From NCBI GenBank assembly GCA_035550695.1, contig DASZOS010000007.1:19433-83432 (forward strand): a stretch of 64,000 bases of DNA. Reading direction: 5' to 3'. This DNA is from Burkholderiales bacterium. Lineage in GTDB: Bacteria > Pseudomonadota > Gammaproteobacteria > Burkholderiales > SG8-39. Shown in pieces: positions 58,079 to 64,000 of the stretch. The notes beneath the pieces were generated by a model that was not told where the DNA came from, did no database searches, and saw only the letters and a list, made by a program, of their open reading frames with translations. Every line of letters begins with the position of its first letter. The first letter of the stretch is position 1. Both the position numbers and the translations under genes were made by a program.

Positions 58079-58150
58079 CCCGCTGAGGAGCGTTGCGTCC
58101 CCGGGGTAGCTGCGGGGGTCAGGCTCAGCTAAATTCAACGGCGCTCGCAT
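58079..58150 (+). promoter_or_regulatory. SAH (S-adenosylhomocysteine) riboswitch
   Basis: CTGAGGAGCGTTGCG-(hairpin TCCCCGGGGTAGCTGCGGGGG)-TCAGGCTCAGC...TTCAACGGCGCTCGC matches the conserved GAGGAGCGYUGCG / CAGGCUC / AACGGCGCUC blocks. Located upstream of ahcY. Confidence 0.85.
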
Positions 58151-58180
58151 CGGAAACGGTGCGGGCGCTTTTTGCTTTTT
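58141..58180 (+). terminator. Intrinsic terminator acting as the riboswitch expression platform
   Basis: GCGCTCGCATCG-GAAA-CGGTGCGGGCGC (12-bp stem, 58141-58168) followed by TTTTTGCTTTTT. The 5' arm reuses the riboswitch 3' strand GCGCUC. Confidence 0.65.
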
Positions 58181-58196
58181 GAGGAGATCCGTCGCA

Positions 58197-59606
58197 ATGA
58201 AGATCGATTCCAAGTTCACCGACTTCAAGGTCGCCGACCTCGCGGCTGCCGACTGGGGCCGCAAGGAAATGGCCATCGCCGAATCCGAGATGCCGGCGCT
58301 GATGGCGATCCGCCAGGAATACGCGGCGCGTCAGCCGCTCAAAGGGGCGCGCATCGCCGGGTCGCTGCACATGACCATCCAGACCGCGGTGCTCATCGAG
58401 ACGCTGAAGGCGCTCGGCGCCGAGGTGCGCTGGGCCTCGTGCAACATCTTCTCCACCCAGGACCACGCCGCGGCCGCCATCGCCGCCGGCGGCACGCCGG
58501 TGTTCGCGTACAAGGGCGAGTCGCTCGACGAGTACTGGGAGTTCACGCACAGGATCTTCGACTTCGGCGCGGGCAAGGGGCCGAACATGATCCTCGACGA
58601 CGGCGGCGACGCGACGCTGCTCGTGCATCTGGGCATCAAGGCGGAGAAGGATGCGTCGGTGCTGAGCAAGCCTTCCAGCGAGGAGGAGATTTCGCTCTTC
58701 GCCGCCATCAAGAAACGCCTTTCCGCTTCGCCCGGGTGGTACTCGAACGCGGCCAGGGAGATCAAGGGCGTCACGGAAGAGACCACCACGGGCGTGCACC
58801 GCCTCTACCAGATGGCGAAGGAAAAACGTTTGCTCTTCCCCGCGATCAACGTCAATGATTCGGTGACGAAGTCGAAGTTCGACAACATCTACGGCTGCCG
58901 CGAGTCGCTCGTCGACGGCATCAAACGCGCGACCGACGTCATGGTCGCGGGCAAGGTCGCCGTGGTCGCCGGCTACGGCGAGGTCGGCAAAGGCTCGGCC
59001 CAGGCTCTGCGCGGGCTCCAGGCGCAGGTCTGGGTCACCGAGATCGACCCGATCTGCGCGCTGCAGGCGGCGATGGAAGGCTACAAGGTCGTGACCATGG
59101 ACTACGCCGCGGACAAGGCGGACATCTTCGTCACCGCGACCGGCAACTACAGGGTCATCACCCACGAGCACATGAAGCGCATGAAGAACAACGCCATCGT
59201 GTGCAACATCGGCCACTTCGACAACGAGATCGACGTGGCGGGCCTCAAGGCCTACAAGTGGGAGAACATCAAGCCGCAGGTCGACCACGTCATTTTCCCC
59301 GACGGCAAGCGGATCATCCTGCTCGCCGAGGGCCGCCTGGTGAACCTGGGCTGCGCGACCGGCCATCCGTCGTACGTGATGAGCTCTTCGTTTGCGAACC
59401 AGGTGCTCGCGCAGATCGAGCTTTTTACCAACACCGCGAAGTACGCGGTCGGCGTCTACATCCTGCCCAAGCACCTCGACGAGAAGGTGGCGCGCCTGCA
59501 GCTCGCCAAGCTCGGCGCGATGCTCACCGAGCTCACCGACGAGCAGGCGCGCTACATCGGCGTGCCGAAGCAGGGGCCGTACAAGAGCGACCACTACAGA
59601 TACTGA
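58197..59606 (+). CDS. ahcY: Adenosylhomocysteinase
   Basis: [24 protein letters not shown] (NAD site), [10 protein letters not shown], and C-terminal [13 protein letters not shown] at 58197 follows GAGGAG. Confidence 0.97.
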
Positions 59607-59607
59607 A

Positions 59608-60522: not shown

Positions 60523-61412
60523 ACCTGCTCTACGGCACCACGCCGCCGCGGCCGGGGACGCCGCCGGGCGCGGTGGAGGCCGCCGCCGACAAGCTCGCCG
60601 CCAGGCTGAAAGGCCTGCCGCTCGACGCGGTGGTGGTCTACGACATCCAGGACGAAACCGGGCGCACCGAGCTGCCGCGCCCGTTTCCCTTCGTCGGCAC
60701 GATCGACCCGCGCGCTTATTCGCGGCTTCTCGTCGAGCGCTGCGGCCGGCCGGCGATCACCTACAAGAGCCTCGGCAACCTGGACGAGGCCGGCTGGAAC
60801 GCCTGGCTCTTCGAGGCGGCACACGAGTACGGCGTGCGCTTCGTCTCCGTCGTCGGCCGCCCGACTTCCGGAGTGCGCTACCCGCTCGGGCTTTCGCAGG
60901 CGATCCGCATTGCCGCCCATCACGCGGCGGGCTTCACGGTCGGCGGGGTGGTGATCGCGGAGCGCCACGGCCAGGAGCGCAGCGAAGCGGCGCGGCTCCT
61001 TGCCAAGGGCATCGAGGGCTGCGCCTACTTCATCTCGCAGACCGTTTACCACGCGCGGCCGACCGAGCGGCTGCTGCGCGACTACCTGCGCGACTGCCGC
61101 GGCGCGGGCGTCGCCCCGCGCCGCGTGATCCTCACCTTCGCGCCCTGCGGCCGCGAGAAGACGCTCGCCTTCATCCGCTGGCTCGGCGTCAAGGTGCCGC
61201 CGCAGACCGAGCGCGCGATCCTCGGCGCCGCCAACCCGCTCGCCAAGTCGATCGAGATCTGCCGCGATAACCTGCGGCGCATCCTCGATCAGCCGTACCG
61301 CGGCGAAATTCCTCTCGGCGTGAACGTCGAGAGCGTGTCGATCAACCGCGACGAGATCGACGCGAGCATCGAGCTTTTCCACGTCCTCAGAGAGACGCTG
61401 CAGGGCAAATGA
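60519..61412 (+). CDS. Divergent methylenetetrahydrofolate reductase-like protein (MetF fold)
   Basis: Collinear with MTHFR blocks: LLYGTTPPR (compare FEFFPP), [39 protein letters not shown] (compare KVDAGADFAITQ), [12 protein letters not shown] overlaps at both ends. Confidence 0.55.
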
Positions 61413-63223
61413 ACCGCGCGCTGCCGGTGCTCGCGGTGCTGATCGCGCTCCTCGGCGTCATCGCTTTCCCGTTCATGCGCGCGCTGGAAAACCGGCTGCT
61501 CGACAGCTTCGTGCGCACGCAGGCCGCGCTCCTCGCCCCCGACCCGGACATCGTGCTCGTCGAGATCGACGAGAAAAGCCTCGCCGCCATGGAAAAGGAG
61601 GCCGGCCGCTGGCCCTGGCCGCGCGTGGTCTATGCCGACCTCGTCGAGGGGCTGGCGGCGCAGAAGCCGCGCGCCATCGTGTTCGACATCATGTTCACCG
61701 AGGCCGACCGGTTCCGCCCGCAGGACGACGCGGCGTTCGGCGAAACGGCCGCCAAGCATCCCAACGTGTATTTCCCGCTCCTGCGCCTGCCGTCGGGCGG
61801 CGACAAGAACGGCGTGCTTCTCGCCGAGCTCGCTCCTGATCTCGGCCTCATCCGGTCAAAAGGCGCGCGGGCCGATGCGCGCGCCGCGGTCGTGCCGCCG
61901 CTCGCGCTTCCGCGCCGTACCTACGCCCGCACCGGGCTCATCAGCTTCACGGAAGACCCGGACGGCGTCGGGCGGCGCCATTTGCTGCGCGAGGTGATCG
62001 GCGGCTGGCACATCCCTTCGCTTGCGGCGCGCGTCGCCCTGGATCTTGGCTTTCCCGTTCCCGACCAGGACGAGTTCGTGCTCGCCTGGCGCGCCGCTGC
62101 GCGCAGCTTCCCGCGCTCCTCCTTCAGCGACCTTTACGAGGACTTCAACCGCTCGGCGCGCAAGCGGGCTCCCGACGAATTCGCCGGCAAGATCGTGATC
62201 GTGGGCGCCGCGGCAAGCGGCTTGCAGGACCTGCGCGTCACCCCGCTCTCGAGCCTGCATCCCGGCGCCGAGATCCTCGGCACGGCGATCGAGAACCTGA
62301 AGAACGCCCGCCAGATGCGCTATGCGCCGCTGTGGTGGAGCGCGTTGGTGGGCTTTGTTCTCATCGCCCTCGTGTTCGCCGCGTTGCGGCTGAATACCGA
62401 TACCCGCCTCATCGGCGCGGGGCTCGCGATCGCCTCGCTCACGCTTCTCGTGGCGTGCTGGTTCGCCGCGGGCCGGCTCACCCTCATCCCGATGCTCACG
62501 CCGCTGGCGGCCGCCTGGACCTTCTACGCCGCGGGCGCGGTCGCCGAGCACCTGCGCGAGCGCCGCGCGCGCCGCGAGGCGATCGCGATGTTCTCGCGCT
62601 TCGTCAACCCGCATGTCGTAAGACAGCTCGTCGAGCGCGGCGGCATCGAAGGCGCGGGGCAGTCGCGCGAGGTGACGCTGCTTTTCTCCGATATCCGCGG
62701 CTTCACCACGCTATCCGAGACGCGCAAACCCGAGGAGGTGGTCGCGCTTCTCAACCGCTACTTCTCGCTCCAGGTCGACGTGGTGTTCCGCCACGGCGGC
62801 TCGCTCGACAAGTTCATCGGCGACGCGATCATGGCGCTGTGGGGCGCGCCGCTCGAGGACCCCGAGCACGCGCGCCACGCGGTCGCCTGCGCGCTCGACA
62901 TGGCCGACACCCTCGCCGAGTTCAGGCGCGAGCTCGGCGCGGCGGCAAGCGACTTCGACGTCGGCATCGGCATCCATTCGGGCCGCGCGGTGGTCGGGCT
63001 GATCGGCTCGGAGAAGCGCCGCGAGTACACCGCGATCGGCGACGCCGTCAACCTCGCAAGTCGCATCGAGGGGCTCACCAAGGAAGCGAAGCGCCGCATC
63101 CTCGCGTCGCGCGACACCGTCGAGCGCTGCGGCGATGCCTTCGAATTCGCCTCCTGCGGAACTTTCCCTGTCAAGGGACGCGCGCAGCCGGTAGAGTTGT
63201 TCGAGCCGCGCCGCAAGCCATGA
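61409..63223 (+). CDS. CHASE2-sensor class III adenylate/guanylate cyclase
   Basis: N-terminal TM segment, a periplasmic CHASE2-like region ([23 protein letters not shown]), three TM segments, and a catalytic CHD ([58 protein letters not shown]). Confidence 0.9.
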
Positions 63224-63687
63224 AAGCGATCTGTATTCTGCTTTTACTTCCGCTCCTCGCCTGGGCCGAGCCCGCTGCCGTCATCCGCGCGACCGAGCTG
63301 AAGAAGGACCCGGCGACCGACGCCCCGACAGTCGCCGAACTGCCGGAAAGCACTAGCGTCGATGCGCTGGAGCGCCGCGGTGGCTGGACGCGCGTCAGGG
63401 CCGCCGGCGCCGAGGGCTGGGTGAAGATGCTCGCGCTGCGCTACGGCACGCCGGGCCGGCAGGGCGAGAGCGGGCTTGCGCAGATCTTCAACGTGGCGCG
63501 CACCGGCTCGAGCGGCGCGCAGGTCACGACCGGGGTCCGCGGCCTCGACGCCGAGAGTATCGCCGGCGCCCAGCCCAACCCCGCGGAGCTGCAGAAAATG
63601 CAGGCCTACGCCGCCACCCCGGATGCGGCGGCAGCGTTCGCCGCGCAGGCGAAGCTGCAGGCGGTCGCCGTGGAGGAGCCGCAATGA
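63220..63687 (+). CDS. Secreted SH3b-domain protein
   Basis: Signal peptide [16 protein letters not shown], then an SH3-like block [11 protein letters not shown]...[24 protein letters not shown] overlaps on both sides. Confidence 0.6.
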
Positions 63688-64000
63688 TCCGCGCGGCTGT
63701 CCTCGCCGCGGCGCTCGTCGCTCTCCCGGCGCATGCGCAGTTCAACTTCGACCTCAACCGCGCGATCGAGTCGGTGAGGAAGCTCGGCCGGGCCACGACC
63801 GAGATCGACGAAAAGCAGGAGATCGAGATCGGCCGCGACATGGCCGCGCGCCTGCTCGGCGCCGCGCCGCTCGTGAACGACGCGCGCCTGCAGCGCTACG
63901 TCAACAACGTCGGCCGCTGGCTCGCCTCGCAGACCGAGCGACCGGGCCTGCCGTGGCGCTTCGGCGTGCTCGACGCGCCGCAGGTCAACGCCTTCGCCGT
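63684..64000 (+). CDS. M48-family periplasmic metalloprotease (5' part; continues past the right edge)
   Basis: Signal peptide [18 protein letters not shown], then EIGRDMAARLLG...LVNDARLQRYVNNVGRWLA...WRFGVLDAPQVNAFA, the block that typically precedes HExxH in M48 proteases. Confidence 0.7.
   Translation, partial: MIRAAVLAAALVALPAHAQFNFDLNRAIESVRKLGRATTEIDEKQEIEIGRDMAARLLGAAPLVNDARLQRYVNNVGRWLASQTERPGLPWRFGVLDAPQVNAFA

Follow-up and report, generated by a model that had tools for sequence, protein, structure and literature searches.

A conserved string of six genes, probably a single operon, places a CHASE2 cyclase, an SH3b protein and an M48 protease behind an S-adenosylhomocysteine riboswitch in uncultured Burkholderiales

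Riboswitch regulons are usually read as closed metabolic loops, in which a metabolite acts on the genes for its own synthesis, use or recycling, and the riboswitches of the S-adenosylhomocysteine (SAH) class are ON switches, the SAH-bound state of which permits expression. The published SAH-riboswitch regulon consists of the core genes ahcY and metF and the taxon-specific additions metH, PF04020, COG1189 and COG1385, with no signalling genes (PMC4239095). Among signalling enzymes, the CHASE2 cyclases CyaD1, CyaD2 and CyaK of Sinorhizobium meliloti signal with the outer-membrane protein NsrA, and the signal is proteinaceous (PMC13001267). We describe here a locus in which elements of both systems occur in one string of genes, at positions 58079-64000 of a 64,000-nucleotide stretch of DNA from a Burkholderiales bacterium (GenBank assembly GCA_035550695.1, contig DASZOS010000007.1, positions 19,433 to 83,432 of the forward strand; this whole stretch is called the window). 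An SAH riboswitch is followed by ahcY, a PanE-like reductase gene (gene 2), a gene resembling methylenetetrahydrofolate reductase (MTHFR; gene 3), and a trio of genes for a CHASE2 nucleotidyl cyclase, an SH3b protein and an M48 protease. Analysis of the window and of related loci, which followed up an initial annotation made from the sequence alone, makes it fairly probable that the region is one six-gene operon combining an SAH-recycling unit with a cyclic AMP (cAMP) signalling module.

The locus resembles the SAH-riboswitch ahcY-metF operon of Beta- and Gammaproteobacteria (RF01057, PMC4239095) in having the aptamer directly upstream of ahcY as the first gene, an intrinsic-terminator expression platform and an MTHFR-type function downstream in the string. 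It differs in that a (beta/alpha)8 barrel of the PDB 3IJD family, without a Pfam match, takes the place of MetF, a PanE-like reductase stands between ahcY and the MTHFR-like gene, and three signalling and envelope genes are appended without a spacer. With S. meliloti CyaD1, CyaD2 and CyaK it shares a periplasmic CHASE2 sensor fused to a class III cyclase and, as a proposal only for the window's trio, reliance on an envelope partner that another gene encodes; in place of the beta-barrel NsrA, the trio has a soluble periplasmic SH3b protein and an M48 protease, and the cyclase is only ~32-38% identical to CHASE2 cyclases of rhizobia and other alphaproteobacteria. Each component, whether riboswitch, ahcY, class III cyclase, CHASE2 or M48, is of a known kind; what appear to be new are the joining of all of them in a single conserved string, the recognition that the trio is a widespread unit and the functional placement of the 3IJD family. 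The initial annotation knew of no description of a coupling between this riboswitch and a cyclase, and a full-text literature search likewise finds no paper on CHASE2 with M48, with an SH3b partner or with an SAH riboswitch, and none on signalling genes in SAH-riboswitch regulons.

The features of the region, all on the forward (+) strand of the window, are as follows.

58047..58074, +, promoter-like site TTTAAA-16 nt-TAGAAT, a consensus match only (9/12), 4 nt upstream of the aptamer
58079..58153, +, SAH riboswitch aptamer (Rfam RF01057, full model 1-78, 49.8 bits against a gathering score of 37, E = 3.3e-06)
58140..58179, +, expression platform found by terminator scan, a 13-bp terminator hairpin with a G+C-rich stem (GGCGCUCGCAUCG/CGGUGCGGGCGCU), then UUUUUGCUUUU
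58197..59606, +, ahcY, adenosylhomocysteinase of 469 aa (PF05221, 7e-148; TIGR00936, 614 bits, cutoff 498)
59608..60522, +, gene 2, PanE/ApbA-family NAD(P)H oxidoreductase of 304 aa (ApbA and ApbA_C domains; NF005091, 267 bits, cutoff 252)
60519..61412, +, gene 3, MTHFR-like (beta/alpha)8 barrel of 297 aa, by homology to PDB 3IJD and predicted fold
61409..63223, +, CHASE2 class III nucleotidyl cyclase of 604 aa (CHASE2 PF05226, 182.5 bits, residues 10-321; Guanylate_cyc PF00211, 97 bits)
63220..63687, +, exported SH3b protein of 155 aa (SH3_3, 28.6 bits, cutoff 27; signal peptide read by eye)
63684..64000, +, M48 metalloprotease, 5' part (residues 1-105 of 275; signal peptide; 32 bits to the BepA model on the fragment)

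The six same-strand genes occupy 5.8 kb of a 67% GC genome and are spaced by at most 1 nt, exactly as the initial annotation had placed them: the ahcY stop (59606) is separated by 1 nt from the ATG of gene 2 (59608), and the remaining four junctions are ATGA stop/start overlaps (60519-60522, 61409-61412, 63220-63223 and 63684-63687). The string was completed at its 3' end on a second contig (L001, in our numbering of related loci), which has 6 differences from the window over 12,592 shared bases; there the M48 gene is complete, with 275 aa and a stop adjoining the stop of the convergent gene ydjM, so the string comprises exactly six genes. A terminator scan finds no hairpin with a T-tract at any junction, in line with the initial annotation, and its only + strand matches within the string are two weak 5-bp stems, one inside ahcY and one inside the cyclase gene; both strands together give 6 terminator-like matches, against 3.8 +/- 1.9 in shuffles, and the weak matches within genes are no commoner than shuffling would give. 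The only strong hairpin in the string is the riboswitch's own platform, a 13-bp stem followed by TTTTGCTTTT at 58140-58169. The tight packing is more than chance: 4-nt overlaps occur at four of the five gene pairs inside the string, against two of nine same-strand neighbour pairs outside it (JGI gene calls, L001), and they recur at the orthologous junctions of relatives.

Translation signals vary along the string. Shine-Dalgarno sequences are strong before ahcY (GAGGAG, 9 nt upstream, pairing at -9.3 kcal/mol) and the M48 gene (GGAGGAG), moderate before the cyclase gene, and weak or at background (-2.8 kcal/mol) before the PanE-like gene (-3.6 kcal/mol), gene 3 (-1.3 kcal/mol) and the SH3b gene (-2.4 kcal/mol). 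The weak sites at several junctions would fit translational coupling by reinitiation. Just past the window end (L001 13101-13106), the M48 stop codon TAA is followed directly by TTA, the reverse complement of the ydjM stop, with zero intergenic bases. No terminator-like hairpin was found near these two stops on L001, so operon transcripts would run antisense into ydjM unless Rho stops them.

That an SAH riboswitch heads the string, as first annotated, is borne out by the RF01057 match at 58079-58153, which covers the full model and exceeds the gathering score. The aptamer lies in the ahcY 5' leader, its 3' end 43 nt from the start codon, and RF01057 reaches the gathering score in six of the seven trio-bearing relatives tested, as well as in two more distant loci described below (L098 and L124), with orthologous sites scoring 45.9-57.4 bits. 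Terminator and aptamer share one strand (AACGGCGCUC), 5' arm of the former and 3' strand of the latter, and are therefore mutually exclusive; the minimum-free-energy fold of 58075-58200 yields the terminator hairpin. Hairpin and U-tract are kept in 44 of 59 related leaders, the stem with paired changes (ACCGG/CGGU versus AUUGG/CGAU). Given the shared strand and the established behaviour of the riboswitch class, we infer that SAH binding blocks termination, the leader having the layout of a transcriptional ON switch. Two promoter-like sites were found in the region, against 0.3 expected from shuffles, and an AT-rich island surrounds the TTTAAA-16-TAGAAT site.

An alignment of gene 3 homologues, scanned against one genome per GTDB species, identified 80 loci, all in metagenome-assembled genomes of uncultured Burkholderiales/Betaproteobacteria, with gene 3 identities of 61-91%; the window proteins and the riboswitch pattern were mapped onto these loci with start codons set by homology, irrespective of how near the upstream stop was. 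Almost all contigs that extend far enough upstream of gene 3 carry the riboswitch and ahcY there. Conservation of the linkage from riboswitch and ahcY to the cyclase had been set beforehand as a refutation test, and the linkage is conserved: 26 of the 80 loci have the trio next after gene 3, in the same orientation, and riboswitch and ahcY are upstream in all 20 trio-bearing loci with sufficient upstream DNA. A 4-nt overlap joins gene 3 to the cyclase gene in 20 of 26 loci (22 of 26 if an in-frame upstream ATG is taken in L065 and L071), the cyclase gene to the SH3b gene in 19 of 22, and the SH3b gene to the M48 gene in 20 of 22; it is retained across cyclase identities of 65-88%. Exact-protein look-ups located the same string on three further contigs (L168, L170/L171 and L172). 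One of these, L170, carries ahcY, the PanE-like gene, a canonical MetF (TIGR00676, 329 bits, cutoff 293.7), the cyclase, SH3b and M48 genes and convergent ydjM; its metF and cyclase genes meet in a GTGA 4-nt overlap, and its MetF is unrelated to gene 3 at the sequence level (BLASTP E = 0.049). The string is thus conserved in about two dozen species-level genomes, in which an SAH-riboswitch operon runs into a periplasm-sensing adenylate cyclase, as we predict it to be, and two exported partners.

In the mechanism that we propose, transcription would start at ~58080 from the sigma-70-like promoter, and the leader would fold either as the SAH aptamer or as an intrinsic terminator, both using the AACGGCGCUC strand. 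When SAH is bound, AACGGCGCUC would be held in the aptamer, the terminator would be blocked and RNA polymerase would read on. The transcript would continue from ahcY through the PanE-like, MTHFR-like, cyclase, SH3b and M48 genes, as the genes are unspaced, without terminators between them and too close for intergenic promoters, and the last three junctions, as stop/start overlaps, would favour translational coupling. The first part of such an operon would be the classical SAH-riboswitch ahcY-metF operon with MetF swapped for an MTHFR of the 3IJD family, probably flavin-independent; the last three genes would be a self-contained, widespread module, in which a membrane adenylate cyclase that senses through periplasmic CHASE2 is accompanied by an SH3b protein and an M48 protease in the periplasm, joined to the operon 3' end in this Burkholderiales lineage. 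Expression of the trio would then be expected to track the SAH level, at least partly.

The string has the sequence characters of an operon, being on one strand and without an internal terminator, with its order and tight junctions kept across species, and a terminator-type riboswitch co-controls all genes that are co-transcribed. As judged from the sequence, a single transcript and SAH dependence of the distal genes are likely, and we consider it probable that the riboswitch contributes substantially to expression of the trio. If read-through occurs, cAMP signalling would receive input from methylation stress; such a connection from metabolite-sensing RNA to a second messenger has not been described.

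The trio is by no means confined to this operon. The SH3b family comprises 1,492 representatives at 50% clustering (E up to 1e-3), with 518 clusters below 1e-10, and its members are mostly full-length, at ~160-190 aa; a word-indexed protein search with the SH3b protein returns only the same clade, at 65-90% identity. Distant members, represented by an 8-sequence alignment ~40-50% identical to the window protein, were scanned against metagenome contigs, giving 80 loci. The order cyclase-SH3b-M48 is kept in every distant locus with room for it, with cyclases 45-69% and M48 proteins 43-62% identical to those of the window, and the 4-nt overlaps inside the trio are also mostly seen there.

Upstream neighbours were evaluated in 40 of the distant loci, the counts that follow being partly assigned by size and sequence similarity. 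In 14 of the 40 the upstream gene is divergent (MlaA, peptidyl-prolyl isomerase, AccB, topoisomerase I and others), and the trio heads its own transcription unit. On the same strand as the trio, a YgfZ-like GCV_T folate-binding protein is encoded 15-114 nt upstream in ~10 loci (for example L101 937-1977), a bacterial globin in ~9 loci, and the S-adenosylmethionine (SAM) decarboxylase speD in one locus (L117 5302-6105); in the sole globin locus inspected (L150 2896-6147), the globin is preceded by MnmC and a Methyltransf_32 protein. In three loci (L098, L107 and L124) the trio stands behind ahcY and a canonical metF; L098 and L124 also have an SAH riboswitch that reaches the gathering score. 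Apart from these two sites, no riboswitch at gathering score was found ahead of the trio in nine loci of other lineages. The cyclase of this second metF-linked lineage is only 50-55% identical to that of the window, and in a neighbour-joining tree of cyclases without support values the group falls apart from the window's clade; the ahcY-metF linkage is therefore either very old or has arisen twice. Same-strand SAM and one-carbon genes thus recur ahead of the trio in several lineages, a pattern noticed post hoc and not corrected for phylogeny, which is suggestive.

Some features of these loci merit separate description. On one strand of L124 (577-9349) lie an SAH riboswitch (57.4 bits), ahcY, a canonical metF, a gene for a 934-aa dCache-PAS-GGDEF-EAL protein and the trio, so that a cyclic di-GMP enzyme and the cAMP trio are both downstream of an SAH leader. 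In L107 (2670-6079), ahcY begins 56 nt after metK, with metF and the trio downstream as in L098, but the whole locus lacks an SAH riboswitch match at the Rfam gathering score; the L107 lineage may have lost or replaced its riboswitch. Searched by tblastn against plasmids and chromids, the window cyclase finds only relatives of ~32-38% identity, and the one Paracoccus CHASE2 cyclase neighbourhood inspected contains TPR and FecR-domain partners.

A number of observations weigh against a selected, riboswitch-driven unit, and they are set out with the two explanations that draw on them. The better of these, possible though we do not favour it, is that co-transcription has no functional meaning: the slot before ydjM would be permissive, and the trio, borrowing read-through from a housekeeping operon, would be a selectively neutral hitch-hiker. 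Within a single clade the trio occurs patchily, and it is dispensable: at least 13 relatives lack it and have convergent ydjM next after gene 3. On the gene 3 tree, loci with and without the trio are intermingled, implying that it was lost or gained repeatedly. A gap of 122 nt is seen in L082. The same slot before ydjM is used in some relatives by a gene for a DUF6701 secreted protein of 881-893 aa, which we take to be MshQ-like; this gene, at a gap of ~105-120 nt, follows gene 3 in L008 (2639-5284, no trio) and the M48 gene in L007 (14098-16779) and L172 (9397-12078). The operon 3' end is a variable region, and the DUF6701 cargo fits a permissive insertion site, not a selected circuit, as does an operon end that has no terminator and abuts the ydjM stop. 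In the second metF-linked lineage the gaps are 39-121 nt, that between metF and the cyclase gene being 121 nt in L098 and 68 nt in L107, and a weak hairpin with TTTT follows metF in L098. The coupling of riboswitch and trio may accordingly be opportunistic rather than a designed circuit.

Several properties of the trio nonetheless speak against neutral hitch-hiking. Its G+C content at third codon positions equals that of the neighbouring genes, on which ground a recent foreign origin was also rejected. Where the trio is kept, the 4-nt overlap is mostly kept with it, over the range of cyclase divergence given above, and the second, distant cyclase clade is again found behind riboswitch, ahcY and metF. 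Elsewhere, SAM and folate genes (speD, the YgfZ-like GCV_T protein, MnmC with a methyltransferase) stand upstream on the same strand.

We think it unlikely that the trio is driven mainly by promoters within the upstream coding sequence, or within the cyclase gene for the SH3b and M48 genes, with the packing reflecting mere economy. Internal promoters and Rho-dependent termination may both be compatible with the sequence. The trio is autonomous elsewhere, with its own upstream region (divergent upstream genes or upstream gaps of 15-460 nt) and its own promoter in lineages with divergent neighbours; the cyclase and M48 genes have Shine-Dalgarno sequences of their own; and consensus scans for sigma-70 promoters are weak in DNA of this G+C content, so that promoters within genes or for other sigma factors would be missed. 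Within these scans, however, neither the window nor L170 has a promoter-like site within 400 nt upstream of the cyclase start. A conserved embedded promoter is unlikely because the tight cyclase junction is kept in L170 although the upstream gene there is unrelated: since metF of L170 and gene 3 are unrelated coding sequences, such a promoter would need two origins. Comparison of synonymous-codon identity between trio-bearing and trio-lacking relatives found no trio-specific constraint at the 3' end of gene 3; the sole elevated stretch in the gene, residues 233-257, is raised in both groups. One promoter-like match, TCGACA-16-GATCAT at 62805-62832 (+), does lie within the cyclase gene, ~400 nt before the SH3b gene, and as TCGACA-16-(G/C)ATCAT it recurs at the same place in L170 (3848-3875), L098 (7523-7550) and L082 (2518-2545); it is probably a by-product of conserved catalytic-motif codons, and we count it neither way. 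Read-through from the riboswitch would in any case still add expression, as no terminator intervenes.

That the cyclase is part of a Pycsar anti-phage system making a cyclic pyrimidine nucleotide, as its match to PADLOC PycC models (best E = 3.3e-33) might indicate, is highly improbable and was rejected for want of an effector: the match is limited to the generic class III cyclase domain, no adjacent gene encodes an effector with a cyclic-nucleotide-binding domain, the SH3b protein has no PADLOC match and the M48 protease only a marginal one to peptidase_U41 (E = 3e-4), the protein is a CHASE2 membrane sensor with the class IIIb Lys/Thr pair, and the trio lies among housekeeping genes in many lineages.

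Returning to the six-gene operon as the preferred reading, the initial annotation had labelled its first genes as methyl-cycle genes, a label that does not suit gene 2, a PanE/ApbA reductase (NF005091); the 2-dehydropantoate-reductase family to which gene 2 belongs is not a recognised methyl-cycle family. Gene 2 is confined to a sub-clade of relatives, in which it adjoins gene 3 or a canonical MetF.

The MTHFR-like character of gene 3 stands through PDB 3IJD and the predicted fold only, since the protein has no match in Pfam or NCBIfam even at E = 10, the canonical MetF models PF02219 and TIGR00676 included. It matches 3IJD over residues 4-296 with E = 1.2e-46 by sequence and 2.5e-64 by profile. 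3IJD is an uncharacterised Clostridium thermocellum protein crystallised with 5-methyltetrahydrofolate (5-methyl-THF), and its entry title states that it 'binds two copies of 5-methyl-THF' (PDB). The AlphaFold2 model of gene 3 is a (beta/alpha)8 barrel with a mean confidence score (pLDDT) of 90, which Foldseek aligns with 3IJD at a TM-score of 0.83, with the flavin-independent MTHFRs 7WMZ and 8BGR at 0.71-0.78 (E = 7e-16 to 4e-13) and with canonical MetF at ~0.65. After 3IJD, the predicted fold is thus nearest to Mfr of mycobacteria (MSMEG_6649/Rv2172c, PDB 7WMW-7WMZ; M. hassiacum, 8BGR). In keeping with such a function, gene 3 holds the MetF operon position, where it is exchangeable with canonical MetF in a close relative. 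It differs from Mfr in lacking detectable sequence homology: the characterised Mfr chains were not found by its PDB search, by sequence or by profile, at E up to 10, and its own family is that of 3IJD, for which MTHFR activity and flavin independence are predictions only. MTHFR is the best reading of its function because of the MetF slot in L170 together with the predicted fold. Gene 3 is presumably a functional as well as a positional replacement of MetF and, on the strength of the model, probably a flavin-independent MTHFR standing in for it. The place of gene 3 in the operon, its predicted fold and its interchange with MetF in a close relative thereby give a likely MTHFR function to the 3IJD family, a structural-genomics orphan.

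The cyclase consists of a first transmembrane helix, a CHASE2 domain (~residues 30-305), further transmembrane segments and a cytoplasmic cyclase domain (residues 418-593). Hydrophobic segments lie at residues 1-28, 305-331 and 332-364, two being clear after CHASE2 and a third transmembrane segment there being assumed; the position of CHASE2 between the N-terminal helix and the transmembrane cluster predicts that it is periplasmic. The cyclase domain, the nearest solved relatives of which are Cya2, CyaC and CyaB, contains the motifs FSDIRGFT (426), DKFIGD (467) and GDAVNLASR (544) and retains both metal-binding Asp residues (428 and 472), the transition-state residues Asn548 and Arg552 and the Lys468/Thr541 substrate pair. 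A Lys/Thr substrate pair is the established residue rule for class IIIb adenylate cyclases, and the enzyme is predicted to be one, with specificity for ATP indicated by the alignment of Lys468/Thr541.

The SH3b protein carries an invariant motif, RTGSSG-x-VTTGVRGL...PNP; its AlphaFold2 model is poor (pLDDT 55), with pLDDT <50 in the region of the motif. The full-length M48 protein on L001 scores 107.9 bits against PF01435, with HEIGH at ~residue 133, beyond the window end. It resembles the protease half of BepA (M48 plus TPR), and identification as BepA itself was rejected, since it scores 113.5 bits against a cutoff of 570 and covers only positions 37-250 of 483 in the model, with no TPR part.

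The CHASE2 domain has, to our knowledge, been without a general ligand or partner since its definition, and the cyclase-SH3b-M48 trio offers a concrete set of partners for it, whatever the outcome for the coupling to the riboswitch. Our guess, by analogy, is that the SH3b protein could be a periplasmic regulator or ligand of CHASE2 that is processed by the M48 protease, because the trio is strictly co-inherited and translationally coupled, because the invariant motif falls in a region that is unfolded in the AlphaFold2 model, and because the only characterised CHASE2 cyclases answer a protein signal via a separate envelope partner (PMC13001267). The working analogy is with CpxA, CpxP and DegP, a membrane sensor, a small soluble periplasmic protein and a periplasmic protease, which would here form one translationally coupled unit. 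In that system, the periplasmic protease DegP removes the accessory protein CpxP. Periplasmic CpxP interacts with the membrane sensor CpxA (PMC4160245). The proteins of the two systems are not homologous, and the output here is a nucleotide cyclase, not a histidine kinase.

A more ambitious proposal, which we offer as speculative and rather doubtful, is that the trio is a cAMP unit deliberately tied to SAM and one-carbon status, here by the SAH riboswitch and elsewhere by speD, the YgfZ-like folate protein, tRNA methyltransferases or ahcY-metF, and that the RTGSSG..TTGVRGL segment of the SH3b protein is the long-sought protein ligand or regulator of CHASE2, released or destroyed by the M48 protease. 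If so, the build-up of a methylation by-product would license an envelope-sensing second-messenger pathway.

Upstream of the string, a Ser/Thr protein kinase gene (56178-57317, -; Pkinase, 179 bits) overlaps by 4 nt with a gene for a ~234-aa protein (57314-58018, -). The pair is divergent from the riboswitch promoter and is present in many relatives and absent from the closest, L007. The 234-aa protein has no Pfam match, and the only support for a cyclase-like domain in it is a weak PDB match to 1YBT, the cyclase-homology domain of Rv1900c (E = 0.015), with no significant BLASTP similarity to the window cyclase. The JGI start of this gene, at 58213, is probably over-extended; it would take the gene across the riboswitch in antisense. 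A single tRNA gene (5059-5132, -; 60.5 bits) is the sole other Rfam match across the 64-kb window. Further upstream (window ~53890-56180, +; L001 2484-4773), metK is followed after 13 nt by a gene for a MetE-like methionine synthase of the 'core' type, 372 aa long and devoid of the N-terminal folate domain (Meth_synt_2, 69 bits; NF005085, 421 bits); as ahcY and the MTHFR-like gene lie within a few kb, most of the methyl cycle is encoded at this locus.

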